Source: Bacilli bacterium
GTDB taxonomy: Bacteria; Bacillota_I; Bacilli_A; RFN20; CAG-449
DNA: 64,000 nt
Assembly: GCA_048359995.1 (NCBI GenBank)
Contig: DBGCPK010000017.1
Coordinates: forward strand, 137,240-201,239
Reading direction: 5' to 3'
This document shows positions 6,287 through 62,803 of the stretch, piece by piece (within the stretch, counting starts at the first letter, position 1; each line of letters begins with the position of its first letter). Made by a program: the position numbers and the translations under genes. The notes under the pieces were generated by a model, which made no database searches, had not been told where the DNA came from, and saw only the letters and a list, made by a program, of their open reading frames with translations.

Positions 6287-6369
6287 GAGCGAGGTCGAAC
6301 GGAGATTTCCGTCGACCTTTTCTTTTGGATAAAAGAGCGAAAAAAACGCAAAATAAATCCGGTGATAAA

Positions 6370-17941: not shown

Positions 17942-18931
17942 TCATAAATGTCGATTCAGATAATCTTCGATCAAAAGACATTCTTTTTCGGAGGCCTTTT
18001 TTCGGCATTCTTCCGATGTATCTGCCGAAATTCCGACGATTTCATCGCCCCAGAAAGATTCGGTTACCTGATATTTTCCGCCTGTTTCTTCGATGACGTC
18101 GTTGACGAAAACGGCCATATCGATTTTTTCTCCGTTTCGATAAGTCACGATGGTCGGCACTCTTCCGTTGCGATAGGAATCGAACTGAAAATGCGATTTG
18201 AATTGAGTCCATTCTTCCGTACTGCGGATTTCTCCGACTTCGAACAGCGTCAGTTCTTTTCCGTTTTCCGCGAGATAATCGTCGAGAAAACGGCTTTTGA
18301 ATTCCTGACAATCCGGGCAGTCATACCAAGAAAAGAGAATGCTGACTTCGGACGAACTCTGGATCATTTGTTCGATTTTAGACGATGAAAGCGAATTGAA
18401 ACGGTACATAATTTCCTCCCCGTAATAGTCGTATACTTCTGTATCGTTGCCGATGAAGTAAGGAGATGTCGAGCAGTATTTTCCGATCTGTTCGGAAAAA
18501 GATTTGGCAGAAGCGTAAATCTTCGGATCGTATTCGATATAACGGACATCTTTTCCGTCGTCGAAGAGCAACAGTGAAGCGCTGGTAACGATGCTTCTGA
18601 TGCGATATTCTTCGTCATCGGAAAGGAGTTCGGCCGTCTTCCGATATTCTTGAATTTCAATCCAGTAGATCGGAAAAGAGTTTTTTCGGATAAACGATTT
18701 CATCGGCTCTTTGATGCTTTGGCAGGTCTCGCAACCGACCTGTGCGATCGCCAAAACGAAATCTTTTTTCTGCGCGATCAAATCCAGCAAATCTCCGCTG
18801 TCGGTGTAAATGAACGTATCGAGCTGATTTACGCGATCGACAAACATCGTCGCCTCGTTCTTTTTCGAAGAACAGGAAAAAAGAAAGAGAAAATTCAGAA
18901 CGACGAAACATCGAAAAAACTTTTGAAACAT
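17942..18931 (-). CDS. Lipoprotein with two thioredoxin-like CxxC segments
   Basis: Lipobox LFSCSS. CETC and CPDC motifs about 130 aa apart. Confidence 0.5.
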   Translation of the reverse strand: MFQKFFRCFVVLNFLFLFSCSSKKNEATMFVDRVNQLDTFIYTDSGDLLDLIAQKKDFVLAIAQVGCETCQSIKEPMKSFIRKNSFPIYWIEIQEYRKTAELLSDDEEYRIRSIVTSASLLLFDDGKDVRYIEYDPKIYASAKSFSEQIGKYCSTSPYFIGNDTEVYDYYGEEIMYRFNSLSSSKIEQMIQSSSEVSILFSWYDCPDCQEFKSRFLDDYLAENGKELTLFEVGEIRSTEEWTQFKSHFQFDSYRNGRVPTIVTYRNGEKIDMAVFVNDVIEETGGKYQVTESFWGDEIVGISADTSEECRKKASEKECLLIEDYLNRHL

Positions 18932-19060: not shown

Positions 19061-19609
19061 ATGAATAATCAGGATTACGAAGTGTTTCTTTTGGCGCGGA
19101 ACTACGCCGATCGGGGAGATTACGAAAAAGCGGTCGAGTTGCTGGAACTTCTTTCGCGAAAGGGAAACCGAAAAGCGATTTTCGAACTGGCGATGCTTTA
19201 CAACGATTTTCAGCCGGAAATTCATCGCCACAAAGCGGTCAATCTGTTCACTCTCGCGGGCGAACTAGGGTATCCGGACAGTTATTATTATTTGGGAAAG
19301 ATCTATTATGAAAAGAAAGAATACGCGGAAGCCTATCGCTTTTTCGAAAAAGGGAAGACCAAAGCGGAAAGCCACCTCTATTTGGGAAAAATCATTTTGG
19401 AAACGCAGTTGAAAAACGTATCCAAAAGAGTCGCTTTCGTGAATTTTCTGGAAGGAAGCAAGAGAAAGGTATACGAATGCGACTACTATCTGGCAATATG
19501 CTATCGTTTCGGTTATGGAATCCGAAAAGACGCGCAGAAAGCGGAATTCTACTTGAAAAAGGCACAGGCGCATCGAATCGACGACAGTTATCATCTTTTG
19601 AAAAACTGA
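19061..19609 (+). CDS. Sel1/TPR-like repeat protein
   Basis: Repeated A-x-YYLG/LYLGKIY helical repeats. No signal peptide. Confidence 0.55.
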   Translation: MNNQDYEVFLLARNYADRGDYEKAVELLELLSRKGNRKAIFELAMLYNDFQPEIHRHKAVNLFTLAGELGYPDSYYYLGKIYYEKKEYAEAYRFFEKGKTKAESHLYLGKIILETQLKNVSKRVAFVNFLEGSKRKVYECDYYLAICYRFGYGIRKDAQKAEFYLKKAQAHRIDDSYHLLKN

Positions 19610-19732
19610 TCGAAGCGAAATGATTCGATAATTCTTTACTTATTTCTTTTAATATTCCGTCACAAAACATTGAAATTCACCGGAGATTATGGCACAATTT
19701 TAGTTGTGGTAAAGAAAGGATTACTGACAGTT

Positions 19733-20434
19733 ATGTACAATTACATTTATACAAATGACGTCAAGGAAGAATGCGTCGTCAGAAAAGGCTGCGATCACGG
19801 ACCTGCACCGATTCCGGAAGAAGGCAAATGGGTTAAATCGAAGCAAATCACCGATATCTCGGCTTTGAGCCACGGCGTCGGCTGGTGCGCTCCGCAGCAA
19901 GGCGCGTGCAAATTGACTTTGAATGTGAAAGAAGGCGTGATCGAAGAAGCGTTGATTGAAACCATCGGCTGCTCGGGCATGACTCATTCCGCGGCTATGG
20001 CTGCGGAAATTCTGCAAGGAAAGACGATTCTCGAAGCGCTCAACACGGATTTGGTCTGCGACGCCATCAACGTGGCGATGAGGGAAATCTTCAAGCAGTT
20101 GGTCTACGGTCGTTCTCAGACGGCTTTCTCGGAAGGGGGACTTCCGATCGGATCTTCGCTCGACGATCTCGGGAAAGGACTTCGGAGTCAGATCGGAACG
20201 ATGTTCGGCACGAAGTTGAAAGGACCGCGCTATTTGGAAATGGCGGAAGGTTATGTGCTGAAAATCGCCCTTGACGACAACGACGAAATCTGCGGCTATC
20301 AATACGTCAATCTCGGCAAGATGATGGAAGCGATCAAAAAGGGAACCGATCCGAAAGTCGCTTACGAATCCTGCATCGGGAAATACGGACGTTTCGACGA
20401 TGCGCCGAAACACATCGATCCGAGAAAAGAATAG
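19733..20434 (+). CDS. NifU/IscU-like Fe-S scaffold-domain protein (divergent)
   Basis: GWCAPQQGAC...IGCSGMTHSAAMA...LVCDAIN matches the IscU three-Cys pattern. Confidence 0.65.
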   Translation: MYNYIYTNDVKEECVVRKGCDHGPAPIPEEGKWVKSKQITDISALSHGVGWCAPQQGACKLTLNVKEGVIEEALIETIGCSGMTHSAAMAAEILQGKTILEALNTDLVCDAINVAMREIFKQLVYGRSQTAFSEGGLPIGSSLDDLGKGLRSQIGTMFGTKLKGPRYLEMAEGYVLKIALDDNDEICGYQYVNLGKMMEAIKKGTDPKVAYESCIGKYGRFDDAPKHIDPRKE

Positions 20435-20445
20435 GAGAAACGAGT

Positions 20446-21447
20446 ATGGCAACCTTTGAAAATCAAGAACGTCGGATGGACGGCATCAATGAATGTTTGA
20501 AAAAATACGGCATCGCGAGTTTGGACGAAGCCAGAGAAATCTGTTTGTCCAAAGGAATCGATGTGGAGAAAATCGTGCTTGGCGTTCAGCCGATCGCTTT
20601 CCAAAACGCCGTGTGGGCGTACACTTTGGGAACGGCGATCGCGTTGAAAGAGAATGCGGCTACCGCATCCGAAGCTTCGCACTTGGTCGGTGTGGGCTTA
20701 CAGGCTTTCTGCATTCCGGGGTCGGTCGCGGAAACCCGTAAAGTCGGACTCGGACACGGCGATTTAGGCGCAATGCTGCTCGACGAGAAGACCGAATGCT
20801 TTTGCTTCTTGGCCGGTCACGAATCTTTCGCCGCGGCGGAAGGTGCGATCGGTATCGCCAGAAACGCCAATAAAGTGAGAGTCAAGCCGCTTCGCGTCGT
20901 GTTAAACGGTTTGGGGAAAGACGCGGCTTACATCATCTCCCGAATCAACGGATTCACCTACGTTCAGACCGAATACGACTTCGAGCATTCCAAATTGAAC
21001 GTGGTTAGAGAAGTTCCGTTCTCGACCGGAGAAAGAAGCGCGATCAAATGTTATGGCGCGGACGAAGTCAACGAGGGCGTAGCGATCATGATTCACGAAA
21101 AAGTCGGTGTATCGATCACAGGAAACTCGACCAATCCGGTTCGATTCCAGCATTTGGTAGCGGGCACCTACAAGAAATGGGCTAACGAAAATAACTTCAA
21201 GTATTTCTCGGTGGCTTCCGGAGGCGGAACTGGAAGAACATTGCATCCGGACAATATGGGCGCGGGACCTTCTTCTTACGGCTTGACCGATACGTTGGGA
21301 AGAGTGCACGGAGATGCTCAATTTGCCGGTTCGTCCTCTGTTCCGGCTCACGTGGAAATGATGGGGCTGATCGGAATGGGCAACAACCCGATGGTCGGCG
21401 CGACGGTTTCCTGCGCAGTGGCAGTGAGTCTCGCACTGAAAAAATAA
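20446..21447 (+). CDS. GGGtGRT family protein (uncharacterised)
   Basis: Contains ASGGGTGRTLHPDNMGAGP. Confidence 0.8.
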   Translation: MATFENQERRMDGINECLKKYGIASLDEAREICLSKGIDVEKIVLGVQPIAFQNAVWAYTLGTAIALKENAATASEASHLVGVGLQAFCIPGSVAETRKVGLGHGDLGAMLLDEKTECFCFLAGHESFAAAEGAIGIARNANKVRVKPLRVVLNGLGKDAAYIISRINGFTYVQTEYDFEHSKLNVVREVPFSTGERSAIKCYGADEVNEGVAIMIHEKVGVSITGNSTNPVRFQHLVAGTYKKWANENNFKYFSVASGGGTGRTLHPDNMGAGPSSYGLTDTLGRVHGDAQFAGSSSVPAHVEMMGLIGMGNNPMVGATVSCAVAVSLALKK

Positions 21448-21606: not shown

Positions 21607-21984
21607 ATGTCTTTAAAAAAAGAGGAAAAGGCAATTACGGAAATCGCCGAGAAGTACAAAAAAACGTTTAGCAATCTGATTAAAAACGGAAAGGAGTCGA
21701 ATCTTCCGCAGTTGTTGAAAGATGAATCGCAACCATATTTTTCTTCGGTCAACATTCTCGATTACGCCAAGGAAAATCTAAATTTCGATCAGCGGTTTAT
21801 CATCCACATTCACTTCTGCCTTTCTTTGATGAAACCGCAGGAAAGGGAAATCATCTGGAAAGAGTTTTTCATCACGCAGACGAGCGAAAATAAGATCAAC
21901 TGGTGGTCATATCATTACGCTCGTTCGACCTACTATCGGATCCGTAACCGCGCGATCCTCAACTTTTACCGCTTATGCGCATAG
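21607..21984 (+). CDS. Small ArpU/sigma-70 region-4-like putative transcription regulator
   Basis: C-terminal EREIIWKEFF...STYYRIRNRAILNFYRL resembles ArpU/RinA-type HTH. GGAG RBS. Confidence 0.4.
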   Translation: MSLKKEEKAITEIAEKYKKTFSNLIKNGKESNLPQLLKDESQPYFSSVNILDYAKENLNFDQRFIIHIHFCLSLMKPQEREIIWKEFFITQTSENKINWWSYHYARSTYYRIRNRAILNFYRLCA

Positions 21985-22847
21985 GGATCGGAGGAGTACT
22001 CATCGCTTTACTCTCTGCTCTTTCTTGGAAAACGGAAGAGAGAGTCTGCATTTTCAAGTCTGCGCATTTAAACTACGAACAGGGGAATTTTTATTTTCAT
22101 TTTCAGGAAATTTCCGGATTTTACGAAATTTTTCAGGTTAAAGTCAACGGAATGACGACGATGAAGGTGAATCATTTGAAAAGGATCTCATCGTTTCCGA
22201 TCGGTTCTTTGAATTACGATGAAAATAACGAAATCCTCGTTTCTTTCGATCAAAAAACGTACGCGTTTTATCTTTTTCCGAAGCGCAAAATCGGATTGCT
22301 CGGAAGCGGATTTTCTTTCAACGATCTGATCGACGACAAGGAGAATATCATCGAATTTCAGGACAGCCAGTATTTCATAATGAGAGATTACGAAGAAGAG
22401 GTGCGGAATGCATTTCCATATTACGATTTCCAAAACCTTCCCGCTTTTTCATTTGACGCGCGGTATATTCTCGGTGAAAAAATCGAAATGGTTGTCTATT
22501 CCGACGGGCTTTTTCCGTCCTTAAACGGCGAGGACGGCTATCATTTTCTTCTTTCGGCGGTAAAAGGGGAGAACGCGTATTCGTTCGCCTATCGAGGGGT
22601 AGATCCGATTTATCATCCGGAAGCCGGTGAGGAATTTCAGCGTTCCGAACTCTGCTTCGGATTGTTTCATCAGGCGAAGCGCGCCGACGTACGCGTCGAG
22701 ATCGACGGACTTTACGGAAGTCCGATCAATCTTTTTTTCACGCAGACGGTCGATCTTTCATCTCCCCTGTTCGGAAATGAGGGAGTATATGCTATACGGA
22801 TTTCCGATTCCGAAAAGGACGAGTACGTCTGGGAGTTTGACTTATGA
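21975..22847 (+). CDS. Hypothetical secreted protein
   Basis: N-terminal hydrophobic signal segment. Start overlaps the upstream stop. Confidence 0.45.
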   Translation: MRIGIGGVLIALLSALSWKTEERVCIFKSAHLNYEQGNFYFHFQEISGFYEIFQVKVNGMTTMKVNHLKRISSFPIGSLNYDENNEILVSFDQKTYAFYLFPKRKIGLLGSGFSFNDLIDDKENIIEFQDSQYFIMRDYEEEVRNAFPYYDFQNLPAFSFDARYILGEKIEMVVYSDGLFPSLNGEDGYHFLLSAVKGENAYSFAYRGVDPIYHPEAGEEFQRSELCFGLFHQAKRADVRVEIDGLYGSPINLFFTQTVDLSSPLFGNEGVYAIRISDSEKDEYVWEFDL

Positions 22848-23176
22848 TCGTTTTGATACTGATCCTTTCATTCGGTCTGGTTTTACCTTTCGAAGCGACG
22901 AGAACCGAAATAAGCCGTTATCTCGATCTGATGCTGCCGTACGTCTATTACGATTCGATTTATCTCGAACAAAACGGCATCTTTCTCGACAAGGAGAGAT
23001 TGATGAACGAGGTCAACGAGGAGATAATCCGTTATTTCGCGGATTTCGATCGCGTGGAATCGGTAAAAACCTTCTATACATTTGACGATCTCACGCTTTC
23101 GTTTTCTCTGCATTACGTCCATTTTTATCGATCGTTTTCGATCGCAAAGGAGATCGCTGCAGATGAAAAAAGATAG
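22844..23176 (+). CDS. Hypothetical small secreted/membrane protein
   Basis: N-terminal TM segment. ATGA overlap with the upstream gene. Confidence 0.4.
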   Translation: MIVLILILSFGLVLPFEATRTEISRYLDLMLPYVYYDSIYLEQNGIFLDKERLMNEVNEEIIRYFADFDRVESVKTFYTFDDLTLSFSLHYVHFYRSFSIAKEIAADEKR

Positions 23177-24047
23177 TCAACGGATTCTGCTATACGCTGT
23201 GATCGCCGTTATCGACTTCCTTTCCGGATTTTATTGGTCGCTCCTATCTCTTGCTTTTCTGACCGCCGTCGAAGGGATTTCCGCGCGAAAACGGCGCGCT
23301 TTCCAATTCAAACTCGACCTTTTGAAAGTCGTCAATCCCCACTTCCGCGACAGAAAAGAAAAACTGGTCCGCGCCTTCGGATCGTCGGATCTGACTTACG
23401 AGGATTACTGCTTGCTTTTGGAAGAACGCGCCGGAAATAAAAACGAAAAAAATTTTTTCTCCGAATTGAGGCGGTGTCGGAATTCCGCGGGTATCCTCCA
23501 CCTGATCCGCGATTACGAATCCCAAATGGAGAAAAGAGAAGAAGAATTGCCTTTTGATCGATGTCTCTTTTCGTTGACGATTTTGCTCTATTCGCTGATT
23601 CTCCCGTATTGCCGACACTCAATTATCTCCTATCTTTGGACCTGTTTGCTAAATTTGAATCTCGTTTTGAACGAATTTTTTCCGCCGAGGTTCTCTCCGA
23701 TCGAAAACTTTTTTCTTTCGTTTAATCGAAAGCTTTCCTATATGTTTCCGAAAGAAAGTTTCGAATCGACGCTTGAAGAATGTCCGAAAATCGCGCGGTG
23801 TTTTGAAACGTTGATCGAAAGCGTCCGGCGACAGGTTTGCGATCCCCGTTTGTTTTCGCATTCCGCGCACGGCATTTTGCTTTCGATGTACGGCGTTCTT
23901 TCTTTTGATACGGCTTTAACACGCCGTGAAATAGAGGAGACGGCTCTGCGAATCCGCGCGAAAAAGAACGAAACCCTTCTCCTCAGGAAAGAGAGAATCT
24001 TCGCCTTGGCTTATCTAGGCGTGATTTTGGGAGGAATCGCCTTATGA
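23163..24047 (+). CDS. Hypothetical membrane protein
   Basis: Two N-terminal TM helices and one C-terminal TM. Start overlaps the upstream stop. Confidence 0.4.
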   Translation: MKKDSQRILLYAVIAVIDFLSGFYWSLLSLAFLTAVEGISARKRRAFQFKLDLLKVVNPHFRDRKEKLVRAFGSSDLTYEDYCLLLEERAGNKNEKNFFSELRRCRNSAGILHLIRDYESQMEKREEELPFDRCLFSLTILLYSLILPYCRHSIISYLWTCLLNLNLVLNEFFPPRFSPIENFFLSFNRKLSYMFPKESFESTLEECPKIARCFETLIESVRRQVCDPRLFSHSAHGILLSMYGVLSFDTALTRREIEETALRIRAKKNETLLLRKERIFALAYLGVILGGIAL

Positions 24048-24346
24048 GGAAAAACCTGATATGGATTTTATCGGGGTTGACTTTTCTTTCTCTGAATTTC
24101 GAGTTCCGCGATCAACTTGCCTGTCGGCAGACGACGGGAATTCTCAAAACCTGCGGGATACTTTTGGAAAATGACATTCGAAAGTACGGTGTTCTTCTTC
24201 CCGCGACCGAAGCGGTATTCGAAAAATATCGCGTCGATTGGAGGATCGACGAGGAAAAAGAGGGATATATTCTGAAAACCACCTATTTTTCCATATGGAA
24301 AAACGGAGACGCCGAGGTTACCTTTTTCGTTGCGATAAGTCGGTAA
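24044..24346 (+). CDS. Hypothetical small secreted protein
   Basis: Signal-peptide-like N-terminus. ATGA overlap with the upstream gene. Confidence 0.4.
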   Translation: MRKNLIWILSGLTFLSLNFEFRDQLACRQTTGILKTCGILLENDIRKYGVLLPATEAVFEKYRVDWRIDEEKEGYILKTTYFSIWKNGDAEVTFFVAISR

Positions 24347-25727
24347 ACACAGATTCGAATTGCGATTTCAAGGTTTCCATATCCCCGTCGTTGTCGATGA
24401 GGTAGTCGCATCGACAAGCGTAACGATCGAATTTCGAACTTCGATTGATGGATAAATCCTGCGCGACGTTTTTCGATTTTCTTTTTCGGAGATGTTCGAT
24501 TTGGAAAGTCGATGAGCAGGTTATGCCGATGGCGTAATCGAAAAGGAGATGAAATCGGGTTTCGAACAGAAGAGGAACTTCGACGGCGGCAAGGGGGCAA
24601 GTTTTTTTCTGCGAAAGAAAGCGACGAACCCGTTCTTTGACCAAAGGGTGAATAAAGTTTTCGAGCCTCTTCTTCAATTCAGGCTGTTTTTCGACGATTT
24701 GCCGCAGGTATCCTCTGGAAATCGTCAGATTGTCATCGAGTACCTGTTCGGAAAACAAGGCGACCAAATGTTTTTTGACTTCGGTTTCTGCGTAGAGTTC
24801 GCCGACGATGGCGTCGCAGGAAAGTACCGGAACGCCCTTATCTTCGAACATTTTGAGAACGGTGGATTTCCCCGAAGCGATTTTTCCGGTGATGGCGACA
24901 GAAATGCCGACATTTTGGCATCTCGGACAATATGTGGTGCCTCTCCCGTGAATTTTGCTTTTCAACAGACGCGTCGAACAGATCGGACAAGGCGTTCCTC
25001 CTTTGCCGTAAACGTTGAGTCGGTTCTGGAAACGCCCGTCGACGCCTTGATCGGGATGATAACTGGAAACGGTCGATCCTCCGGAGAGAATCGCGTCGTT
25101 CAGCGTTTCGACGGAATAGGTCAGAATATCGCGGCAGTTTTCTTTTGTCAGCGCATCGGCTCTGAGAAAAGGATTGAGACGGCACTTGAAAAGCACTTCG
25201 TCGCAATAGATGTTGCCGAGTCCGGAAAGGATACTCTGATCGAGTAAGCACGTCTTGATTTCGGCAGAAGTCTTTTGAAAAATGCGGAAGAGATAGTCCG
25301 GATCTTCGACATCGAAAGGCTCTGGTCCGAGCCGACGGATTTCCGGATGGGCGTCGATTTGATCGGTCGGGCAAAGAAACATAACGCCGAAACGTCGGGA
25401 ATCTTCATAGCAGAGCCTCGTTCCGTCGTCCAAATGGAAAATGACGCGGGTATATCGCCCGATTTCCTCGTCCTTTTGAATGCAACGATATTTTCCTTCC
25501 ATTCGCAAGTGGGAAACGAGACTTCGGTTTCCGTCGAAATGAAAGAGAAGGTATTTTCCTCTCCGAGATACGGAAAGAATCGTTCTTCCTTTCAGTTCGT
25601 TGGCGAATTCTTCCAAGGGACTGTGAATCATCTTCGGATAGAGAATTTCGACATTTTCGATCGTGCGGTGAAGATATCGGGATTCCAAGATTCTCCGTAC
25701 GGTTTCGACTTCCGGTAATTCAGGCAT
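24318..25727 (-). CDS. mutM-coaE: Formamidopyrimidine-DNA glycosylase (Fpg/MutM) fused in-frame to dephospho-CoA kinase (CoaE)
   Basis: N-terminal PELPEVE. Zinc finger CPIC-x16-CPRCQ is followed directly by the CoaE P-loop ITGKIASGKST. No stop and no restart codon between them. Confidence 0.8.
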   Translation of the reverse strand: MPELPEVETVRRILESRYLHRTIENVEILYPKMIHSPLEEFANELKGRTILSVSRRGKYLLFHFDGNRSLVSHLRMEGKYRCIQKDEEIGRYTRVIFHLDDGTRLCYEDSRRFGVMFLCPTDQIDAHPEIRRLGPEPFDVEDPDYLFRIFQKTSAEIKTCLLDQSILSGLGNIYCDEVLFKCRLNPFLRADALTKENCRDILTYSVETLNDAILSGGSTVSSYHPDQGVDGRFQNRLNVYGKGGTPCPICSTRLLKSKIHGRGTTYCPRCQNVGISVAITGKIASGKSTVLKMFEDKGVPVLSCDAIVGELYAETEVKKHLVALFSEQVLDDNLTISRGYLRQIVEKQPELKKRLENFIHPLVKERVRRFLSQKKTCPLAAVEVPLLFETRFHLLFDYAIGITCSSTFQIEHLRKRKSKNVAQDLSINRSSKFDRYACRCDYLIDNDGDMETLKSQFESVFTDLSQRKR

Positions 25728-39692: not shown

Positions 39693-39793
39693 ATCGTCGA
39701 CGGATTGTTGAAAAATACATCGATCGTCTAAGAAAAAAGCCCCGAGATCAGGGGCTTTTTGGTTTATTTTCGAGATGGAGCGAGCGACGGGAA
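39693..39793. repeat. 101-bp direct repeat, copy B (overlaps the genuine tRNA-Gly 3' end)
   Basis: See copy A. The repeat continues into the intact tRNA body. Confidence 0.85.
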
Positions 39794-39849
39794 TCGAACC
39801 CGCATAGCAACCTTGGCAAGGTTGTGTTCTACCACTGAACTACGCTCGC
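39776..39849 (-). tRNA. tRNA-Gly (anticodon GCC)
   Basis: 74-nt cloverleaf by hand fold. Acceptor GCGAGCG/CGCTCGC, T-loop GGTTCGATTCC, anticodon loop TTGCCAA, encoded CCA. Confidence 0.9.
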
Positions 39850-49697: not shown

Positions 49698-49774
49698 TGG
49701 TGACCTATACCGGATTCGAACCGGTGAATGATACCTTGAGAGGGTACTGAGTTAAGCCGCTTCTCCAATAGGCC
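49698..49774 (-). tRNA. tRNA-Glu (anticodon CTC)
   Basis: 77-nt cloverleaf by hand fold. GGCCTAT acceptor, T-loop GGTTCGAATCC, anticodon loop CTCTCAA, encoded CCA. Confidence 0.85.
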
Positions 49775-51681: not shown

Positions 51682-53412
51682 TCAACTTTTCGAACTGTCG
51701 TGAAAGTGCGTATGAAGAAGTTCGTGCGCTTTTTCCGACCCCGGCTTTCCCAAAAATTCTTCGTAGATCTTCCGGATCGCCTCGTTTTCGGAGGCGACGC
51801 GGACTTTTTGCTCTTTGTCGATCGAGGAAACCGCAGTCTTCCTGCTTCGTAAGACGAAATCCTGATTTTCATCGGAGGAAACGATTTGACCTCCGCCGTT
51901 GATGCAACCGCCCGGACAAGCCATTACTTCGATCGCGTCGAAACGGGCGATTCCGGTTCGGATTCCTTCCAGAACAGCTTTGACGTTTTTCAAGCCCGAG
52001 ACGATCCCCAAGCGCAGTTCTTTTCCGTTTAAAGAGATCGCGGCTTCTATAACGCCATGGAAGACCGCGCTGTTTGAAAAGCGAATCTCCTTTGACGTAC
52101 CCGATAGCGTGCGGACGACGCTTTCCATCACGCCGCCGGTATTGGCGAAGAGAACGCCGCCTCCGCTGAAAGAGGCGAACGGGGGATCGAATTCCGCTTC
52201 ATCGATTTCGTTCAGGAGAACGCCGTGGCGTTTCAGAAGTTCGACGTATTCTTTAACCGTGATCACCAGATCGACGTTTTTCAGCCCGTCGTTTGCCAGT
52301 TCTTCGCGATCGGCCTCGCGTTTTTTGGCTAAACAAGGCATCAAGGCTACGGAGACGATGCTTTTCGGATCGACGTTGGCTTTCTCCGCGTAATAGGTTT
52401 TGATCATCGCACCGAGCATTTCCATCGGAGATTTGCATGAAGAAGGAAGACAAATCAGATCGGGATATTGAATTTCCAAGTGCTTGATCCATCCCGGACA
52501 GCAGGAGGTGATCAAAGGGAGATTTCGGTTTTCTTCAAGTCGTCGAAGAAGTTCGTCGGCTTCTTCCATTACCGTCAGATCGGCGCCGAAATTCGTGTCG
52601 AAAACTTTGTCGAAGCCGACGGCTTTTAACGAAGCAACCATCTTTTTGCTGACATCGGTTCCGGCAGGAAAGTTGAAAGCTTCTCCGAGGGTCACCCGCG
52701 TCGCCGGTGCGGTTTGGATCACGACGGTTTTGGTCGGATCGTTCAGATAATTTTCGAGTCGGTCCAACGCGCTGCTCTGCATCAAAGCACCTGTCGGACA
52801 GACTTGAACGCACTGACCGCAAGTGATGCACTTCGAAGGATCGGAGATGCGCAGTTTGAAATTGCGGTAAGACGGAGAAATCGCCCGAATGCCCTGCAAG
52901 GAATCGCAGACCGCGACGCAGCGACAGCATCGAATGCACTTCGACGCGTTTCGGAAAAGACCGCGCACGTCCGTATAACGGTTTTCATAAGAATGCTCAC
53001 CTTGAAAAGGAATCTCCCGAACGCCGAGTTCTTTCGCCAGATCCTGCAAACGGCAATCGCCGTTTTTCGGGCAGAGCAGACAATCGTTCGGATGATCCGA
53101 CAAGAGCAAGGTCACCGTTTTTTTTCTCGCTTCGACGACTTTCGGAGAGTCGGTGAAGATTTCCATACCGTCGGCGACTTCGGTGGAACAAGCGGCAAAG
53201 AGTTCGTCGCGTCCCTTGATTTCTACTAAACAAACCCGACAAGAAGACGGTCGGTGTTCCAATTGAATTTCCGGTCGGGACAGATAGCAGAGCGTCGGTA
53301 TCCGAATCCCGCGCTTTCGTGCAGCTTTCAGTATCGTCATCGGGGTATCTTCCCGATATTCTTTTCCGTTGATTTTGAAATTCACAATCCGATCCTCCGT
53401 TCTATCTGACAA
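51682..53412 (-). CDS. hydA: [FeFe]-hydrogenase catalytic subunit (HydA, M3-type)
   Basis: N-terminal 2Fe-2S domain, 4Fe-4S domains, and H-cluster motifs TSCCPGW, MPCLAKKREA and EVMACPGGCINGGGQ. Confidence 0.9.
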   Translation of the reverse strand: MSDRTEDRIVNFKINGKEYREDTPMTILKAARKRGIRIPTLCYLSRPEIQLEHRPSSCRVCLVEIKGRDELFAACSTEVADGMEIFTDSPKVVEARKKTVTLLLSDHPNDCLLCPKNGDCRLQDLAKELGVREIPFQGEHSYENRYTDVRGLFRNASKCIRCCRCVAVCDSLQGIRAISPSYRNFKLRISDPSKCITCGQCVQVCPTGALMQSSALDRLENYLNDPTKTVVIQTAPATRVTLGEAFNFPAGTDVSKKMVASLKAVGFDKVFDTNFGADLTVMEEADELLRRLEENRNLPLITSCCPGWIKHLEIQYPDLICLPSSCKSPMEMLGAMIKTYYAEKANVDPKSIVSVALMPCLAKKREADREELANDGLKNVDLVITVKEYVELLKRHGVLLNEIDEAEFDPPFASFSGGGVLFANTGGVMESVVRTLSGTSKEIRFSNSAVFHGVIEAAISLNGKELRLGIVSGLKNVKAVLEGIRTGIARFDAIEVMACPGGCINGGGQIVSSDENQDFVLRSRKTAVSSIDKEQKVRVASENEAIRKIYEEFLGKPGSEKAHELLHTHFHDSSKS

Positions 53413-54853
53413 TCGCTTTCGGTTTCGCCGGACATTTAGCCAGACAAGTGCCGCATTTGACGCATTTTTTCGAGTCGATCGCGAATGCGTTCAAACGCGG
53501 ATTCTTCCCGAAGAGATCGGTTTTGAAGATGGCGTTCACAGGGCAGTTTCTCGCGCACATTCCGCAACCGAGACAATTCGGAGTAACGATCCGATACTGC
53601 ACCAATGCCTTACACGAACCGGCAGGGCATTTTTTGTCGGCGTGGGCAAGGAATTCGCCTTCGAATTTTTCCAAAGCGGACAGGACGATGCCTGCGGACT
53701 TCTTTCCCAAAGCACAGAGCGAGGTTTGGCGGACGTAGAGGGACAGTTCCCTGATTCGGCGGACGTCTTCTTCGCTTCCTTTTCCTCCGATCAAAAGATC
53801 CAAGGCTTCCAAAATTCTTTTGATGCCGATCCGACACGGCGTGCATTTTCCGCAGGTCTCTTCATACAGAGAGCCGAGCGTAAAGCGGAGACGGCTGACG
53901 ATGCAGTCGTTCGCGTCGAAAAAGGTGATGTTGCCATCTTGGAATCGCGATTTCTCCACGCGGAGAATGTCCACATCGAGTTCGTTTTCGTCAAAAAAGG
54001 TATCGCCGATTAAGGCAGCCTTGAATTCTTTCTTATCCTTGATTCCGCCGGCTTGCTCGATGATTGTCCGAAGCGTCGTTTCCGAAGTATATTCGCTTAT
54101 TCCTGCTCGGGTGATCTGACCTGTCAAAGCGAAAAGGGCGGGAATTTCATCATCTTCGGTTTCCCGGGCAATCGGAAGTTGGATAAGTGCTTCGGAAGGA
54201 AAAATAAAAGCATGCGGATAAAGGTCGGGATAAACCGGTTCGGCTCTTCTTCCGTGCAGACTCGCTTTAAAAGCCGAATCGTCCATATGAACGAAATTCC
54301 GCATTCCGATCCGGATTCGGATGTTCAGCGAAAAGTCGATGCCCAGAATTCTTTCACCGACGAGACCGATTTCCCGAGCGTCGAGCAGTGCTTTCTTCAA
54401 GATCTCGGCGGCTTCTCTGTCGCGTTCGTCGATATAAATCATCGCCTCTTCGACCTTTGCAATCCGTGCGGCGATGAGTATGCTCTCGACGATGAGATGG
54501 GGATTCTTTGCGGCGATCGTCTTTCCGAAAAACGTTTCGGGATCGTGATCGGCCAAAGATGTGACGAGAACTTTATCGGGCGAAGAAATACCGGCAATTT
54601 GTTCCAATTTTTCGAGAAGAAGACTTTGCGATTGTCGATCTGTGATCGCTTTCGAACGAATTTTATCGCCGATTTCCGGATGTAGAAGAAGTTCGACGAA
54701 AGCACGGTAAGCACCTTTTCCGATCGCTTCTTCAAGATTCGTCGGATCTTCGATATCGAAGCGGCTTAAAATGGTATTCCGCTTTTTTTCTCCGTATTCC
54801 GCGATTCGTTCCAGGGAAAACGCGGAAAAGTTTTCGGGTGAATGAAATTTCAT
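53402..54853 (-). CDS. NuoF/HydB-like Fe-S subunit with degenerate FMN/NADH site
   Basis: C-terminal CGKCTPCR plus two CxxCxxCxxxCP motifs. The GxGGAGF and GAGAYICGEE motifs are absent. Confidence 0.75.
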   Translation of the reverse strand: MKFHSPENFSAFSLERIAEYGEKKRNTILSRFDIEDPTNLEEAIGKGAYRAFVELLLHPEIGDKIRSKAITDRQSQSLLLEKLEQIAGISSPDKVLVTSLADHDPETFFGKTIAAKNPHLIVESILIAARIAKVEEAMIYIDERDREAAEILKKALLDAREIGLVGERILGIDFSLNIRIRIGMRNFVHMDDSAFKASLHGRRAEPVYPDLYPHAFIFPSEALIQLPIARETEDDEIPALFALTGQITRAGISEYTSETTLRTIIEQAGGIKDKKEFKAALIGDTFFDENELDVDILRVEKSRFQDGNITFFDANDCIVSRLRFTLGSLYEETCGKCTPCRIGIKRILEALDLLIGGKGSEEDVRRIRELSLYVRQTSLCALGKKSAGIVLSALEKFEGEFLAHADKKCPAGSCKALVQYRIVTPNCLGCGMCARNCPVNAIFKTDLFGKNPRLNAFAIDSKKCVKCGTCLAKCPAKPKAIVR

Positions 54854-54862
54854 AGGTACTCC

Positions 54863-55342
54863 TTACTGTCGATTCAGAATTTCTTCGATCTCTTCGACTT
54901 TGACATTGCCGTAGATCCGGTCGTTGATTTGGACGACGGGAGCGAGGGAACACTTTCCGACACAGCGCAACGTCGTCAGCGTGAATTTTCCGTCCGATGT
55001 GGTTTCGCCGTTCTTGATTTTCAGCACTTCCTCGCACTTTTCCAGAACTTTTGCCGCGCCTTTGACATAGCAAGCGGTTCCTAAACATACATTGACGACA
55101 TTCGCGCCCTTGGGAAGCAGAGAGAAGCGATCGCATCCGGAGACCACGCCGAAAACTTCGGAAAGATTTAGATCGAAGCGATCGGCGACGAATTGCTGCA
55201 CCTTCAAGGGAAGATAGCCGAAAATCCTTTGGGCTTCGCAAAGAACATCGAACAAATCGTCGCGGGACTTCTCTTTCGCATATTCATCGAGTTGATGAAA
55301 CATCTCTTCGTTAGTTTGCATAATTCTTACCTCAGCAACCAT
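54863..55342 (-). CDS. hydC: NuoE/HydC-like thioredoxin-like [2Fe-2S] subunit
   Basis: CLGTACYVKG...CVGKCSLAPV. Confidence 0.8.
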   Translation of the reverse strand: MVAEVRIMQTNEEMFHQLDEYAKEKSRDDLFDVLCEAQRIFGYLPLKVQQFVADRFDLNLSEVFGVVSGCDRFSLLPKGANVVNVCLGTACYVKGAAKVLEKCEEVLKIKNGETTSDGKFTLTTLRCVGKCSLAPVVQINDRIYGNVKVEEIEEILNRQ

Positions 55343-55393
55343 TATAACGGAAAAAAGAAAGCGAAAAAACCTTTTCGATAAAATTTTATCTGT

Positions 55394-56554
55394 TTAATGG
55401 TAGCGGATCGTAACGATCTTGCCGCAGTCTTCCAGCGCCTTTTTCAGCGACTCGACGATTTTCATCTTCATCGAAAGGTCGATCGGCAAATCCTTATGCG
55501 CGGGGTTCAACGTTGTGCCGACGAAAAGGTGGACGTGGCTCGCCTGTTTGAGAATCAGATTGGCGATCAAATTCGCGCCGTCTTTCTGTTTCAGCGATTT
55601 GTCGGAAACGCTTTGGGTGTCGAGATATTTCTGCGCCAAATTCAGCACTTTTCCCAGCGTGATGACGCCTTCGGTAACCAAATCGACGCCTTCGATGCGC
55701 GCCGTAGGAGGTACATCGCTGTCAAGGTAGATCAGAGAAGTTTGGATTTCTTTGTTCAAATAGCGGGAAATGATCTTGGAAGTTGTTCCGCCGCAGACGA
55801 TTTTCACACCTTCCTGATTCATAAATTGCTCGGCGACCGAGAAATCGTCTTCCGGATTCATCGGAGGTCCGACTAAAATGTTGACGCTTTTCGGAGAGAG
55901 AATTTTCAACGCGGCGATCGTCGTATCGTCGCCGGGTTCTCCCATATAAAGCGCGTCGCAGGATTCGCCGATCAAAGCCGCGATCTGCCGCGCCGACATA
56001 TCCGGAGTGTAGTTGGCGCAGAGATACTGGGCGATATCCTCGATCGACCATCCTAAATTCATCGTCTTTCCGATGCCGGCGTGAGGCGCGCCGTCGGAAC
56101 AGAAAACCATCGCGTCGCCTTCTTCGGCGGCGATTTCCGAATAGAAAATGGTTTTGTTCATAATCTCTTTCTTCTGTCTTTTCAAAGGAAAAACCTTTCC
56201 GTTTCGCAAATAAATCAACGGGGGATTGTCGAATTCGAAAATATAGCCTTTTCCTTCGTGATCGACGTGAATGACGGTGAATGTCGAATAGGCGACCTTA
56301 CGCACGGAACAGACAGGCAATGTGGAAATCACGGAAGAAACGCATTCTTCGATTTCCGCGCCGTTGGCCAACATCAGGCAGAGCAATTTCGATGTCAAGG
56401 TCGCCAAAATATTGGCTTTCACTCCGGAACCCAATCCGTCGGCGAGAACGATCGTGGTTCCGTTTTCTTTCCGCACGATCTCGACCTTGTCGCCGCAGAG
56501 TTCTTCTCCTACGTGATTCAAAGAAACGTAGCCGTCGTCGATAAAGTACTTCAT
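55394..56554 (-). CDS. PP2C/SpoIIE-type serine phosphatase
   Basis: VLADGLGSGVKA and MVFCSDGAPHAG metal-binding Asp motifs. Confidence 0.8.
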   Translation of the reverse strand: MKYFIDDGYVSLNHVGEELCGDKVEIVRKENGTTIVLADGLGSGVKANILATLTSKLLCLMLANGAEIEECVSSVISTLPVCSVRKVAYSTFTVIHVDHEGKGYIFEFDNPPLIYLRNGKVFPLKRQKKEIMNKTIFYSEIAAEEGDAMVFCSDGAPHAGIGKTMNLGWSIEDIAQYLCANYTPDMSARQIAALIGESCDALYMGEPGDDTTIAALKILSPKSVNILVGPPMNPEDDFSVAEQFMNQEGVKIVCGGTTSKIISRYLNKEIQTSLIYLDSDVPPTARIEGVDLVTEGVITLGKVLNLAQKYLDTQSVSDKSLKQKDGANLIANLILKQASHVHLFVGTTLNPAHKDLPIDLSMKMKIVESLKKALEDCGKIVTIRYH

Positions 56555-56555
56555 C

Positions 56556-58223
56556 TTATTCTTCCTTCAAACTATTTTTAAAATTGACCAGAGCGATTTT
56601 GGCTTCGGCCGTCGATTCGCCCAAAAGGGAAGCGATTTCCTGCACTGCGGCCATCTGTTTGTTGATAACTTGATCGGTAACTTCGATCATTTCCTTTCGC
56701 AGCGCTTTCATCTTTTCGTCGTCGAGGGTTTCGCGGGTTACGTCTTTATAAATGGCGAAAGCCACGCCGTGTTCCTTGACGATCGTAATCGAGACGTCGA
56801 AATACTTTTGATTCCGGTCGTTGAAGACGACGACGGAATCCACGTTTTCGCCCTTTTCCATCGCGATCATCAACTCGGGAAGATCGATGAATTCCTGATA
56901 AAAGCGCCCGATGGCGTTTTTGTCGATTTGAAGATATTCAAAAGACCGTGCATTGGCATCGACCAAAATTCCTTCGCGATTGATCGTGATGATTCCGTTC
57001 GGGGTATGAGTGATGATTTCGTTGGAGATCGATTCGGCTTTGTTTTTCAGATAAGGAAGGCAGTATTCCGGATCGGCCAAACCGTTGAATACGGCAATCG
57101 CCTTTTCGCGGCACGTGTTGTAACCGCAGGCGCCGCAGTTGATTTCGTCTTCTTTCCGATACTTGAATATGCGGTTGAGAATCTTGCGAATTTCTGCTTC
57201 ACTCGGTATTTTCATGTGATTGACCAAAGGAGGATAAGTGTGCGAAAGATCGACCTCGCCGCGGCTCTCTTCGATCGGGCATCCGCGATCTTTTTTCGCA
57301 TATCGGCGAACCAGATAATTGTCCTTGATCTTGTTGTTTTCGGAAATCCGCGCCGGTCCGTTGACGCATCCGCCTTCGCACATATTCATTTCGATGAAAA
57401 GGTGATCGAGTTCGTCGATGTTTTCCAAGATATCCTTGATCGCCGCCACCCCGTCGATTGTGACAAAGTCGTAATTTTCGTGCGTCGAAACAAAAGATTT
57501 GATGATCCCCCGCTGAATCGGATAGAATCTCGCCGGATTGCGGGACGGTTCGTCTTCGCTTTCTTCAAAACCGATATTGTGAAGGGCGAACATCTTCGCG
57601 ATCTCCTCGAAAGTCAATGCATATTCGACGAAAGGGGATTCTTTCGCTTCTTTTTTCTTGGCGATGCACGGACCGACGAAGACGACTTTGACTTCTTCTC
57701 CGAGTTCTTTTTTGATGATCTCGGCGTGAGCGATCATCGGCGAAACGACAGGCGCGACATATTTCAAAGCGTCCGGATAATTTCTTTGAATGAAAGCAAC
57801 GGCGGAAGGACAGGCGGTGGATATCAACGAACGGAAAGCGCCTCCGTCAAGCAGAGAACCATAGGCTTTGGTGACGAAATACGCGCCGACAGCCGTCTCT
57901 TCGACGTAAGCGAAGCCGAGTTTCTTGCAGGCGGAAGCGAAAGAGGAGAAAGAAGAAACGCCGAAATTCGCGATAAAAGAAGGCGCAACGCTTAATGCGA
58001 CACGTCCCGGAAATTCGCGGATCAGGCGTTCGACATTTTCGACATCGGAGACGACCCTTTTGGCGTTCTGCGGGCATACATTCACGCAATGTCCGCAGAG
58101 AATGCAGTTTTCTTCGACGATCTCGGCTTTATTATCGACAAATCGTATGGCTTTGACGGGACATTTTCTCAAACAGGAGTAGCAATCCTTGCAGGAACTG
58201 CTTTCAAAAGAAAGATACTTCAT
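56556..58223 (-). CDS. hydS: Sensory-type [FeFe]-hydrogenase with C-terminal PAS domain (HydS/HfsB-like)
   Basis: Two N-terminal 4Fe-4S motifs. H-cluster motifs STACPSA, VGPCIAKKKEA and EMNMCEGGCVNGP. Extra CGACGYNTC cluster. C-terminal PAS. Confidence 0.8.
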   Translation of the reverse strand: MKYLSFESSSCKDCYSCLRKCPVKAIRFVDNKAEIVEENCILCGHCVNVCPQNAKRVVSDVENVERLIREFPGRVALSVAPSFIANFGVSSFSSFASACKKLGFAYVEETAVGAYFVTKAYGSLLDGGAFRSLISTACPSAVAFIQRNYPDALKYVAPVVSPMIAHAEIIKKELGEEVKVVFVGPCIAKKKEAKESPFVEYALTFEEIAKMFALHNIGFEESEDEPSRNPARFYPIQRGIIKSFVSTHENYDFVTIDGVAAIKDILENIDELDHLFIEMNMCEGGCVNGPARISENNKIKDNYLVRRYAKKDRGCPIEESRGEVDLSHTYPPLVNHMKIPSEAEIRKILNRIFKYRKEDEINCGACGYNTCREKAIAVFNGLADPEYCLPYLKNKAESISNEIITHTPNGIITINREGILVDANARSFEYLQIDKNAIGRFYQEFIDLPELMIAMEKGENVDSVVVFNDRNQKYFDVSITIVKEHGVAFAIYKDVTRETLDDEKMKALRKEMIEVTDQVINKQMAAVQEIASLLGESTAEAKIALVNFKNSLKEE

Positions 58224-58226
58224 ACA

Positions 58227-58472
58227 TTACCTCAACGCGCTCAGGACTTTTTCCGCGAAAATCACGTCGACGTTGTCCGCGTTGACGCCGTAAACCGGTT
58301 GCTGATCGATCATCATCGAAACTCCTTCGGCGCAATGACCTAAGCAGAACGAGGCGGAGAGTTCGATGCGGTTTTCCGGATCGTGAATGCGGATCAGTTC
58401 TTGAATTCGGGTGATCACTTCCCGACTGCCTTTCAGATGACAGGACGATCCGACGCAAATGGATATTTTCAT
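58227..58472 (-). CDS. Small thioredoxin-like [2Fe-2S] ferredoxin (NuoE-like half)
   Basis: CVGSSC ... CLGHC in an 81-aa product. AAGAGG RBS. Confidence 0.6.
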   Translation of the reverse strand: MKISICVGSSCHLKGSREVITRIQELIRIHDPENRIELSASFCLGHCAEGVSMMIDQQPVYGVNADNVDVIFAEKVLSALR

Positions 58473-58841
58473 AAAAAGACCTCTTTTTCATTATAATACA
58501 ATCGACGGCAAAAAAAAATAATTTCGAAAACGGAAGAAGGGAAATCCTAAAAACCGAAGAATCAACGAAATTACAACGAAAATCAATCGATAAACGGAAT
58601 GGCGCGCATCTGATCTTTGACCTGCGCATTTTCATATTCGGTTATCCTATCATTTTTCGTACACGATAACCACAATGATATTCCGCCATCTTTACCTTTC
58701 ATCTTCATTTGCACCATTTTATTAAGTTCCGATCATATGTCACACTCGTTCTCGGTGTTTCACCCTATTTTTGAGCGGATTGTGTGGATTATTTGCCGGA
58801 TAAATGGTAGAATAAATTTCGATTGAACGGGATGTGGAAGA

Positions 58842-61267: not shown

Positions 61268-62803
61268 TTGATGAAAAAAAGAATACTGAAAAGCGCGATC
61301 GTGCTTCCTTTGGTTTTTTTCTTGTCCGGCTGCCGGTTGATCGGTTTTGACGGCGATTCAAAGGCACCTTCTTTGGATTTAGGTGAATACGCGGGAAATC
61401 GGATTACGCTGGAAATGATCAACCGTTCACAAGGCGTCGTCGGTTTTCCGTCGACCGGAGAGCAGAAGATACTGGTACTTCCGGTCTGTTTTGAAGATTA
61501 CACTTTGGAGAAACTGGCGCTCGATGAAACCGAAGTCGTCGCGAACATCGAAAAGGCGATGTTCGCTCAAAGCGAGGAAACGGGTTGGGAATCGGTCTCT
61601 TCATACTACTCGAAAAGCAGCTATGGCAAACTGAATATCACCGGAGTAGTCGGAGATGTTTTCGTCTTGGATAAAACGTTAAAAGAAGTGGCCTATCTTA
61701 CTTCGACGAAAATAGATTCTTACGATCCGACCTATTACGTCGTGGAAAGTGCGCTGGAACATTTCAAATCGACTTATACGGGCGATATCAAAAGTTTCGA
61801 CAACGACAAAGACGGTTACATCGATGCCGTATGGCTCATATATCTGAACCCGTACTATTCCGATTCTTTTTCTTCCTATTATCTGAAAACGGATTCTTCC
61901 TTTGCTTCGGCTACTTATCAAGACAAAGCGTCCTCGCTTCTTTGGGCGTATACCTATTGGAATTACCAGTCGAAAGCCGATCTTTCATCCCCGACTTCTT
62001 TTTCTTACAGTTGGGCTTCCTACCAGTTTCTCTTTGACGGAGGTTACGAAAAAGAGGGCGTCGATTTGGTTGACGCGCATACGTTTATCCATGAAACGGG
62101 GCATCTTTTCGGGCTGGACGATTATTACAATTACGATTACGGGGTAGAAGATCGAACATCTCCGACCGGCGCGATCGATATGATGGATAACAACGTCGGC
62201 GATCACAACGCGTACAGCAAATATCTCTTAAACTGGATATCTCCGAAACTGATCAAGGAAAGCGGCACTTTTCATTTGGATTCCTTTACCGAAACCGGCG
62301 ATTCGCTTCTTTTGCCTTTGAATATCGGCACTTACAACGATAGCCCTTTCGATCGATATCTGCTCTTCGAATACTATACGCCAACCGGTCTCAATGCGTT
62401 GGACAGCCGAAACGCCTACGATAACGGTATCTTAATGCCGAATGAATCGGGAATGCGGATATACTATGTCGACGCGCGGCTGATTCTTTTGAGTTACTCG
62501 CCGCTTTACGGTTGGATCAACAAAGGATATAGTTCGGAGTATTGCAATACCGACGAGCGGTATACCTTGATTGGGGCGAACAATACGCCGAGTTATTCCT
62601 ATACCGGCGAGAGGCTGATCACGCTTCTTTCCAGTCAGCACCCTCAGAAGAACTATTTCTATCAGGATCGCTTCGACGGTTCGGCGAACGTTTCCGATTT
62701 GTTCACGGAAAAGGACACTTTTTCACTTTATCTCGAAAAGGGAAGTTCGATCTCTTTTGTCTCCGCGGGCGAAGGAATGGACGTCGTCTATTCGGAAAAC
62801 TGA
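61268..62803 (+). CDS. Lipoprotein zinc metalloprotease (HExxH, M6/InhA-like)
   Basis: Lipobox LSGC. FIHETGHLFGLDDYYNYD. Confidence 0.55.
   Translation: MMKKRILKSAIVLPLVFFLSGCRLIGFDGDSKAPSLDLGEYAGNRITLEMINRSQGVVGFPSTGEQKILVLPVCFEDYTLEKLALDETEVVANIEKAMFAQSEETGWESVSSYYSKSSYGKLNITGVVGDVFVLDKTLKEVAYLTSTKIDSYDPTYYVVESALEHFKSTYTGDIKSFDNDKDGYIDAVWLIYLNPYYSDSFSSYYLKTDSSFASATYQDKASSLLWAYTYWNYQSKADLSSPTSFSYSWASYQFLFDGGYEKEGVDLVDAHTFIHETGHLFGLDDYYNYDYGVEDRTSPTGAIDMMDNNVGDHNAYSKYLLNWISPKLIKESGTFHLDSFTETGDSLLLPLNIGTYNDSPFDRYLLFEYYTPTGLNALDSRNAYDNGILMPNESGMRIYYVDARLILLSYSPLYGWINKGYSSEYCNTDERYTLIGANNTPSYSYTGERLITLLSSQHPQKNYFYQDRFDGSANVSDLFTEKDTFSLYLEKGSSISFVSAGEGMDVVYSEN

Follow-up and report, generated by a model that had tools for sequence, protein, structure and literature searches.

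A group-C3-type sensor cassette beside a HydABC-type hydrogenase with a degenerate HydB

We analysed a 64,000-nucleotide (nt) stretch of DNA, here called the window, from a Bacilli bacterium (assembly GCA_048359995.1, contig DBGCPK010000017.1, positions 137,240 to 201,239), in which a putative H2-sensing gene cassette lies in line with the genes of a three-subunit [FeFe]-hydrogenase whose HydB subunit appears to have lost its flavin mononucleotide (FMN) and NADH site. Six co-directional open reading frames (ORFs) were confirmed on the minus strand from 58472 to 51682, in the order fdx, hydS, PP2C, hydC, hydB and hydA (Table 1). The intergenic gaps are, in operon order, 3, 1, 51 and 9 nt, followed by 16 nt between hydB and hydA if the GTG start of hydA is taken. 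This start is ambiguous: the longest ORF opens at the TTG at 53412 and overlaps hydB by 11 nt, and the GTG at 53385, 27 nt downstream of it, has a GGAGGA ribosome-binding site 7 nt before it and gives the 567 amino acids (aa) that are also called at the locus of a sister species. A different gene caller (L019) starts at an internal ATG, which gives 552 aa and would cut into the [2Fe-2S] domain. Neither neighbour is related to the operon: downstream lies a gene for a GH77 4-alpha-glucanotransferase, and the gene upstream is divergent. As read from the ORF calls, the cassette and the hydrogenase genes are one tightly spaced unit.

An earlier note on this DNA, made from the letters alone, had described six minus-strand genes with a largest gap of 51 nt and a single terminator, and had seen neither a kinase nor a response regulator gene within the operon. 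The ORFs, the terminator-like hairpin and the Pfam scans agree with that description, and Pfam returned the families that the note had expected, except for the PAS domain of HydS, which was missed at E<0.01. Promoter-like minus-strand hexamers occur at 58743-58716 and 58702-58675 and are no commoner than in shuffled sequence, no Rex-box-like operator matched above chance in the upstream region (58473-58841), and an Rfam scan of the window gave no riboswitch or other RNA family near the operon.

Table 1. Features of the hydrogenase locus (window positions, in reading direction for genes)
Feature	Position	Strand	Description or evidence
Upstream intergenic region, common to the divergent plus-strand gene	58473-58841	-	Presumed promoter; AGAGG ribosome-binding site 8 nt before ATG
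Small thioredoxin-like [2Fe-2S] protein (fdx)	58472-58227	-	81 aa; PF01257 (2Fe-2S_thioredx) 40 bits
HydS	58223-56556	-	555 aa; 2x Fer4, Fe_hyd_lg_C, PF04060 (Pfam)
PAS domain of HydS, aa ~403-495	56739-57017	-	Sub-threshold Pfam, homologue annotation, AlphaFold topology
PPM/PP2C phosphatase	56554-55394	-	386 aa; SpoIIE/PP2C (Pfam)
HydC, NuoE-like [2Fe-2S] subunit	55342-54863	-	159 aa; PF01257 141 bits
HydB (degenerate), NuoF-like subunit	54853-53402	-	483 aa; NADH_4Fe-4S, weak Complex1_51K, 2x Fer4
Degenerate FMN/NADH-binding region of HydB, aa 86-232	54158-54598	-	Motif losses; dN/dS 0.22
HydA, catalytic group-A [FeFe]-hydrogenase	53385 (GTG) or 53412 (TTG)-51682	-	567 or 576 aa
Intrinsic-terminator-like hairpin, then T-run	51662-51637	-	10 pairs, 6-nt loop; 19 nt past the hydA stop

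HydB has lost the flavin/NADH site and kept its [4Fe-4S] ligands

The NuoF-like subunit was compared, in residue-level alignments, with HydB of A. woodii (7q4v_B) and with canonical relatives. It is without the N-terminal [2Fe-2S] domain, beginning at about the equivalent of residue 126 of relatives of 632-633 aa, with only 9 nt between hydC and its own start. The glycine-rich FMN loop RGRGGAGFPTG reads TDRQSQSLLLE, CNADEGDPGAF has become TSLADHDPETF, and GAGAFVCGEETAL has become GMRNFVHMDDSAF. The NNVET segment and the stretch after it are deleted or altered, GGPSGG is replaced by IGDTF and GSGG by QDGN, and the GAxxCGEETAL motif is replaced or deleted. Of 347 HydB columns without variation in relatives, this protein matches only 157. 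The profile scores follow the motifs: Complex1_51K gives 39.8 bits, compared with 157.6 bits for the canonical paralogue in the genome of the sister species, and the nuoF model (nuoF_fam) gives 150 bits at a cut-off of 559. The model score, together with the alignments to the Protein Data Bank structure and to the family, led us to reject a reading of this HydB as a normal NuoF. With every FMN/NADH motif that we checked destroyed, HydB is predicted to be without a flavin/NADH module.

The metal sites of the retained part are conserved throughout, with all 15 of 15 metal-binding Cys/His residues in place. They are the ligands of the N3-type [4Fe-4S] cluster (C334, C337, C340 and C380; NADH_4Fe-4S 79 bits), those of a Cys/His (Zn) site (H404, C409 and C414) and, in the C-terminal 2x[4Fe-4S] domain, the full set of eight Cys.

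The other two subunits are intact. HydA has the domains Fer2_4, NADH-G_4Fe-4S_3, two Fer4, Fe_hyd_lg_C and Fe_hyd_SSU (NF040763, 700 bits), the motifs TSCCPGW, MPCLAKK and MACPGGC, all 24 of the 24 Cys/His residues that are invariant in relatives, and the proton-relay residues (Cys304 and the Glu, Ser and Arg equivalents), and it looks catalytically competent. In HydC the four Cys ligands (86, 91, 127 and 131) are all present. The hydrogenase downstream of the sensor, which the earlier note had called a HydABC-type enzyme, is not a normal one of this type, its NuoF-like subunit having lost the N-terminal [2Fe-2S] domain as well as the FMN/NADH site. As a separate observation on HydC, residue 35 is His in nine canonical relatives and Cys in the window and the sister species, a lineage-specific change.

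When representative sequences were searched with the degenerate half as the query, other, unrelated NuoF-like proteins of 478-613 aa also came up (P0250, P0258, P0259, P0254, P0347 and P0367). They retain the CxxCxxC N3 motif, and their FMN/NADH motifs have decayed or been deleted independently, so that NuoF-like subunits may have lost flavin more than once.

Distribution, divergence and selection

Among 5.8 billion proteins, only two clusters resemble the degenerate HydB, one at 98% identity from the same species and one at 69% (480 aa); the next best matches are canonical HydBs at no more than 40%. When the degenerate half was run with HMMER against 1.84 billion representatives, only two fragments at 65-68% came up, the rest being at 39% or below. 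The sister-species protein (69-70%) lies at a syntenic locus (L001), which shares the operon and the GH77, HAD, DegV and U32 neighbours with the window, and also at L005, from a human-gut metagenome-assembled genome (MAG) named 'Bacilli bacterium HGM10897'. In GTDB, one species carries it (L005). In the collections searched, the degenerate HydB is limited to the species of the window and one sister species. The MAG assembly that holds the sister locus (CAAEFC01) also has a second, sensor-free set of genes (L012), with a canonical hydC of 154 aa, hydB of 631 aa and hydA of 573 aa.

The divergence of the operon is uneven. Identities between the window lineage and its relatives are 61-67% for HydS and 72-78% for the phosphatase, close to those of the relatives with each other (60-69% and 72-82%). 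The corresponding values are 36-39% against 82-91% for HydB, 50-57% against 71-80% for HydC and 49-57% against 60-81% for HydA. Since the identities of HydS and the phosphatase are normal and those of the three hydrogenase subunits are reduced, the acceleration is specific to HydCBA and is most extreme in HydB.

The ratio of nonsynonymous to synonymous substitution rates (dN/dS) was calculated between the window and the sister species, at a dS of about 0.8-1.2. It is 0.033 for the phosphatase, 0.057 for HydC, 0.068 for HydS, 0.125 for HydA and 0.155 for HydB overall, the last being composed of 0.21 in the degenerate N-terminal half (aa 1-320) and 0.075 in the C-terminal half (aa 321-483). Such low ratios at this dS argue that HydB is under constraint and not in decay. 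A pseudogene or an assembly artefact was ruled out, the ORF being intact in independent assemblies with a dN/dS of 0.16. We also considered horizontal replacement by a distant hydCBA that was already degenerate, and no closer relative of this HydB was found among the 5.8 billion proteins or the 1.84 billion representatives. Because there is no such relative, and because the C-terminal ferredoxin domain bears the clade-specific sequence of neighbouring Bacilli HydBs, divergence in place is the favoured origin.

The sensor cassette

The first gene of the cassette encodes the small [2Fe-2S] protein, with Cys6, Cys11, Cys43 and Cys47, and is kept upstream of hydS at L001-L005, L007, L008, L013 and L038. 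HydS consists of a 2x[4Fe-4S] ferredoxin domain (aa 6-54), an H-domain (aa 75-290), a Cys4 motif (aa 363-388), a PAS domain (about aa 403-495) and a C-terminal long helix. The H-domain scores 166 bits with Fe_hyd_lg_C. Its three motifs are STACPSA (L1), GPC (L2) and CEGGC (L3), and a comparison of 119 close full-length homologues showed no variation at C138-P139, P185-C186 or C282/C286, nor in the L2 GPC and the L3 pattern C..GC. The earlier note had held that the first of the paired cysteines of L1, present in the TSCCPGW of HydA, is Ala in HydS. Alignment to solved [FeFe]-hydrogenases bears this out: 'listACPsa' of HydS pairs with 'iltsCCPsw', so that the sequence is ACP and not the full canonical TSCCP, and Ala137 replaces the relay Cys. 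Among the 119 homologues this position is Ala in 83, Cys in 30 and Ser in 6. HydS has Gly184 at the position of Met353 in CpI, and the equivalent of CpI Met497 is Asn in HydS and in 118 of the 119 homologues.

The extra Cys4 cluster and the C-terminal PAS domain, both also proposed from the letters alone, were recovered. The former matches PF04060 (E 2e-9), with C363, C366, C371 and C388 invariant in the same homologues. For the latter, no Pfam PAS match passed E<0.01 in HydS; sub-threshold matches to PAS_8, PAS_4, PAS_7 and PAS_9 lie across residues 397-555, PAS_9, PAS_8 and PAS are assigned to homologues of 45-48% identity, and the AlphaFold model (overall predicted local distance difference test score, pLDDT, 81.8) has a five-stranded PAS topology at 410-494, followed by the long helix. 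The elements are strands at 410-415 and 419-423, helices at 425-431 and 449-457, and strands at 461-468, 473-482 and 487-494, with a pLDDT of about 83-87.

These features are those of group C3. The enzymes TmHydS, TamHydS, HydS of Ruminococcus albus (R. albus) and HfsB of Thermoanaerobacterium share with HydS the 2x[4Fe-4S] domain, the H-domain, the Cys4 motif and the PAS domain (PMC5037454, PMC10055695, PMC8924675), and HydS likewise has Ala at the relay Cys, Gly at the CpI Met353 position and a PP2C gene immediately downstream. TmHydS has Ala (A131) at the relay position, as do about 43% of group C enzymes, and differs in other relay residues too (PMC10055695). It departs from the window HydS in having Ser at the CpI Met497 position (PMC10055695), where the latter has Asn. 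We found no essential difference from group C3 in HydS itself, which we class as a group-C3-type sensory [FeFe]-hydrogenase with a putative role in H2 sensing.

The adjoining PP2C gene also fits group C3, which HydDB names 'phosphatase-linked' (PMC5037454). Residues 1-220 of the phosphatase form a PPM/PP2C serine phosphatase of the SpoIIE/RsbU/RsbX kind, with the PPM fold and the conserved metal-binding (catalytic) Asp residues present, and residues ~223-386 form a conserved alpha/beta C-terminal domain without an assigned role. The length of the family is nearly constant, mostly 386 aa, at more than 50% identity, and its matches come from sources named Bacteroidia, Treponema and Erysipelotrichaceae. 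No STAS, RsbW-like, Ser/Thr kinase or response regulator protein was found among the 35 window ORFs scanned with Pfam, namely 33 of the larger ORFs outside the operon, all of at least 150 aa, and both operon neighbours; eight had no Pfam match. The cassette also occurs without an adjoining hydrogenase, as hydS-PP2C only in L037 (6282-9161), where the phosphatase cluster is named from a Bacteroidia MAG, and as fdx-hydS-PP2C in L038 (6054-9167). Because it stands alone at these loci, the comparison suggests that the target of the phosphatase acts in trans and that fusion to the hydrogenase operon is optional.

Three-subunit hydrogenases encoded together with a hydrogen sensor and a phosphatase are common and have been published before. 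The earlier note had called this wiring unusually compact, a judgement that does not hold: the identical six-gene order with canonical subunits is found at L002-L004, L007, L008 and L013, in gut Bacilli/Firmicutes MAGs of at least four related lineages, and in Hydrogenedentota nearly all group C3 genes adjoin group A3 genes (PMC11406978). Group C3 genes adjacent to BfuABC/HydABC make up the sensor-linked group A3 operons (PMC11406978), and hfsABCD and R. albus hydS-hydA2 are studied operons that join a PAS-hydrogenase and a Ser phosphatase to a further hydrogenase (PMC11837493, PMC5707799). As a wiring, then, the sensor-phosphatase arrangement is known. What sets the window apart from the six sensor-linked A3 operons, with which it shares the gene order and the HydS and phosphatase identities given above, is HydB: theirs are of 631-633 aa and have both an N-terminal [2Fe-2S] domain and undamaged FMN/NADH motifs, and that of the window, at 483 aa, has lost the two.

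Other features of the window

The only Rfam matches in the window are two tRNA genes, at 39779-39849 and 49701-49774, both on the minus strand. At 24318-25727 (minus strand), directly downstream of polA, one ORF of 469 aa joins formamidopyrimidine-DNA glycosylase (Fpg; N-terminal, H2TH and zinc-finger domains) to dephospho-CoA kinase (CoaE); either the fusion is genuine or the ORF runs through two separate genes. A protein of the GGGtGRT family (PF14057, 607 bits) at 19061-21447 (plus strand) is preceded by ORFs of 182 and 254 aa without a Pfam match, and the three may form an uncharacterised conserved cluster. Seven ORFs of 290-511 aa have no Pfam family (279-1223, 2601-3701, 11665-13140, 17942-18931, 21975-22847, 23082-24047 and 61268-62803) at thresholds of 1e-6, or 1e-3 for the last. 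The ORFs of PNPase (4139-6286) and of an FAD-oxidoreductase (5911-7677), both on the plus strand, overlap by 376 nt as listed; the oxidoreductase gene probably starts further downstream, because its DAO domain begins at residue 177.

Proposed function and alternatives

In structures of these enzymes FMN sits where the H-cluster chain meets the clusters of HydC and HydB (PMC9499530, PMC11406978). With this branch point lost, the routing of electrons must change. On balance we consider it probable, if narrowly so, that the sensor cassette is co-transcribed with a HydC-HydB-HydA complex that is not NADH-linked and most likely depends on ferredoxin only, a canonical HydCBA being encoded separately. 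HydS would bind or slowly turn over H2, and its PAS domain would pass the H2 state to the phosphatase, which would in turn dephosphorylate a phosphoprotein encoded elsewhere, as expected from the respective families. The complex would have lost NADH oxidation and flavin-based bifurcation and would serve, co-expressed with the H2 sensor, as a hydrogenase that uses ferredoxin only; NADH/ferredoxin confurcation would be left to a separate canonical HydCBA of the kind encoded in the sister genome. The sensing step would be the known group C3 arrangement, itself putative. A more specific proposal is plausible and falls somewhat short of probable: that the complex is a naturally flavin-less derivative of HydABC whose Fe-S wiring is under selection, with ferredoxin-only or re-routed electrons, beside a canonical bifurcating paralogue. 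We found no description of a flavin-less HydB in a sensor-linked A3-type operon in the literature searched.

Several points weigh against this reading. The canonical hydCBA was seen in the MAG of the sister species only and not in the genome of the window, and the samples of the candidate canonical orthologues (P0025, P0032 and P0041) do not overlap those of the window species. Co-transcription across the 51-nt gap between PP2C and hydC is something we infer. The degenerate HydB may hold a non-canonical flavin or another cofactor site. The retention of HydB and HydC is hard to explain, because the route from the C-terminal clusters of HydB to the H-cluster is broken without FMN, and HydA may instead take electrons directly, like CpI, the other subunits having a different role. 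Finally, group C enzymes are themselves still termed putative H2 sensors (PMC8924675, PMC5037454).

The best surviving alternative, which we consider unlikely, is that HydB is a relic heading for loss, kept as a scaffold or by translational coupling, with HydA doing the work by itself, like a monomeric ferredoxin hydrogenase, and no electrons passing through the clusters of HydB and HydC. HydB does evolve fastest of the operon genes and has lost more than half of the columns invariant in relatives (157 of 347 kept), its clusters and those of HydC would be cut off from the main chain without FMN (PMC9499530), and the sister genome has a canonical paralogue. Against these stand a dN/dS of 0.16-0.21 at a dS of about 1, which indicates purifying selection with the degenerate half included, the lack of stops or frameshifts in two species and several independent assemblies, and the conservation of every metal-binding Cys/His in the retained part (15 of 15). 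Distinctly less probable is a recruitment of HydC-HydB-HydA into signalling, for example as an input of redox or ferredoxin state together with HydS and the phosphatase and not as a bulk hydrogenase: HydA, unlike sensory enzymes, keeps the full proton-relay set and every H-cluster motif, the cassette is found without an adjoining hydrogenase in other lineages, and the fold resemblance is that of a generic alpha/beta subdomain. An ordinary electron-bifurcating group A3 HydABC under a co-operonic H2 sensor and phosphatase, with HydB oxidising NADH, is the most improbable of all, since the matching gene order and domain families of the relatives' sensor-linked A3 operons and the intact HydA, HydC and C-terminal HydB clusters are set against the replacement or deletion of the glycine-rich FMN loop, NADEGDPG, GAxxCGEETAL, NNVET, GGPSGG and GSGG, the absent N-terminal [2Fe-2S] domain, a Complex1_51K score a quarter of the canonical one and a nuoF score far below its cut-off (150 bits versus 559).

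The preferred reading, a ferredoxin-only complex beside an H2 sensor, has its nearest parallels in hfsABCD of Thermoanaerobacterium and hydS-hydA2 of R. albus, where one operon encodes a small protein, a PAS-hydrogenase, a Ser phosphatase and a presumed ferredoxin-only hydrogenase (PMC11837493, PMC5707799). In both systems the bifurcating HydABC is encoded elsewhere, like the division of labour proposed here. Their partner hydrogenase is a single subunit (HfsD or HydA2), whereas that of the window is an A3-derived three-subunit complex with the flavin site lost. The HydAB/HydABC enzymes of Syntrophus aciditrophicus and Syntrophomonas wolfei also carry natural HydB variants that abolish bifurcation, and they are NADH-dependent (PMC7311640, PMC9304861); they keep FMN/NADH binding and are without the extra HydB clusters, the opposite of the loss seen here.

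Implications

The mechanism by which HydABC/Bfu enzymes bifurcate with one FMN among Fe-S clusters is still debated (PMC9499530, PMC9304861), and a natural complex under selection that has the clusters without the flavin site is a useful comparison; if our reading is true, it would be a ready-made 'FMN knockout' for probing electron flow in Bfu-type enzymes. It would also represent an independent evolutionary route, by degradation of a trimeric enzyme, to a split like that between HydABC and HydS-HydA2 in R. albus. A3-type gene content alone is no proof of bifurcation, and metagenome surveys that use HydB as a marker of confurcating H2 production in the gut and rumen (for example PMC9562222) would miscount degenerate copies. 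The locus adds a case of an H2-sensor-linked hydrogenase that is probably not NADH-linked, which fits the pattern of R. albus and hfs.

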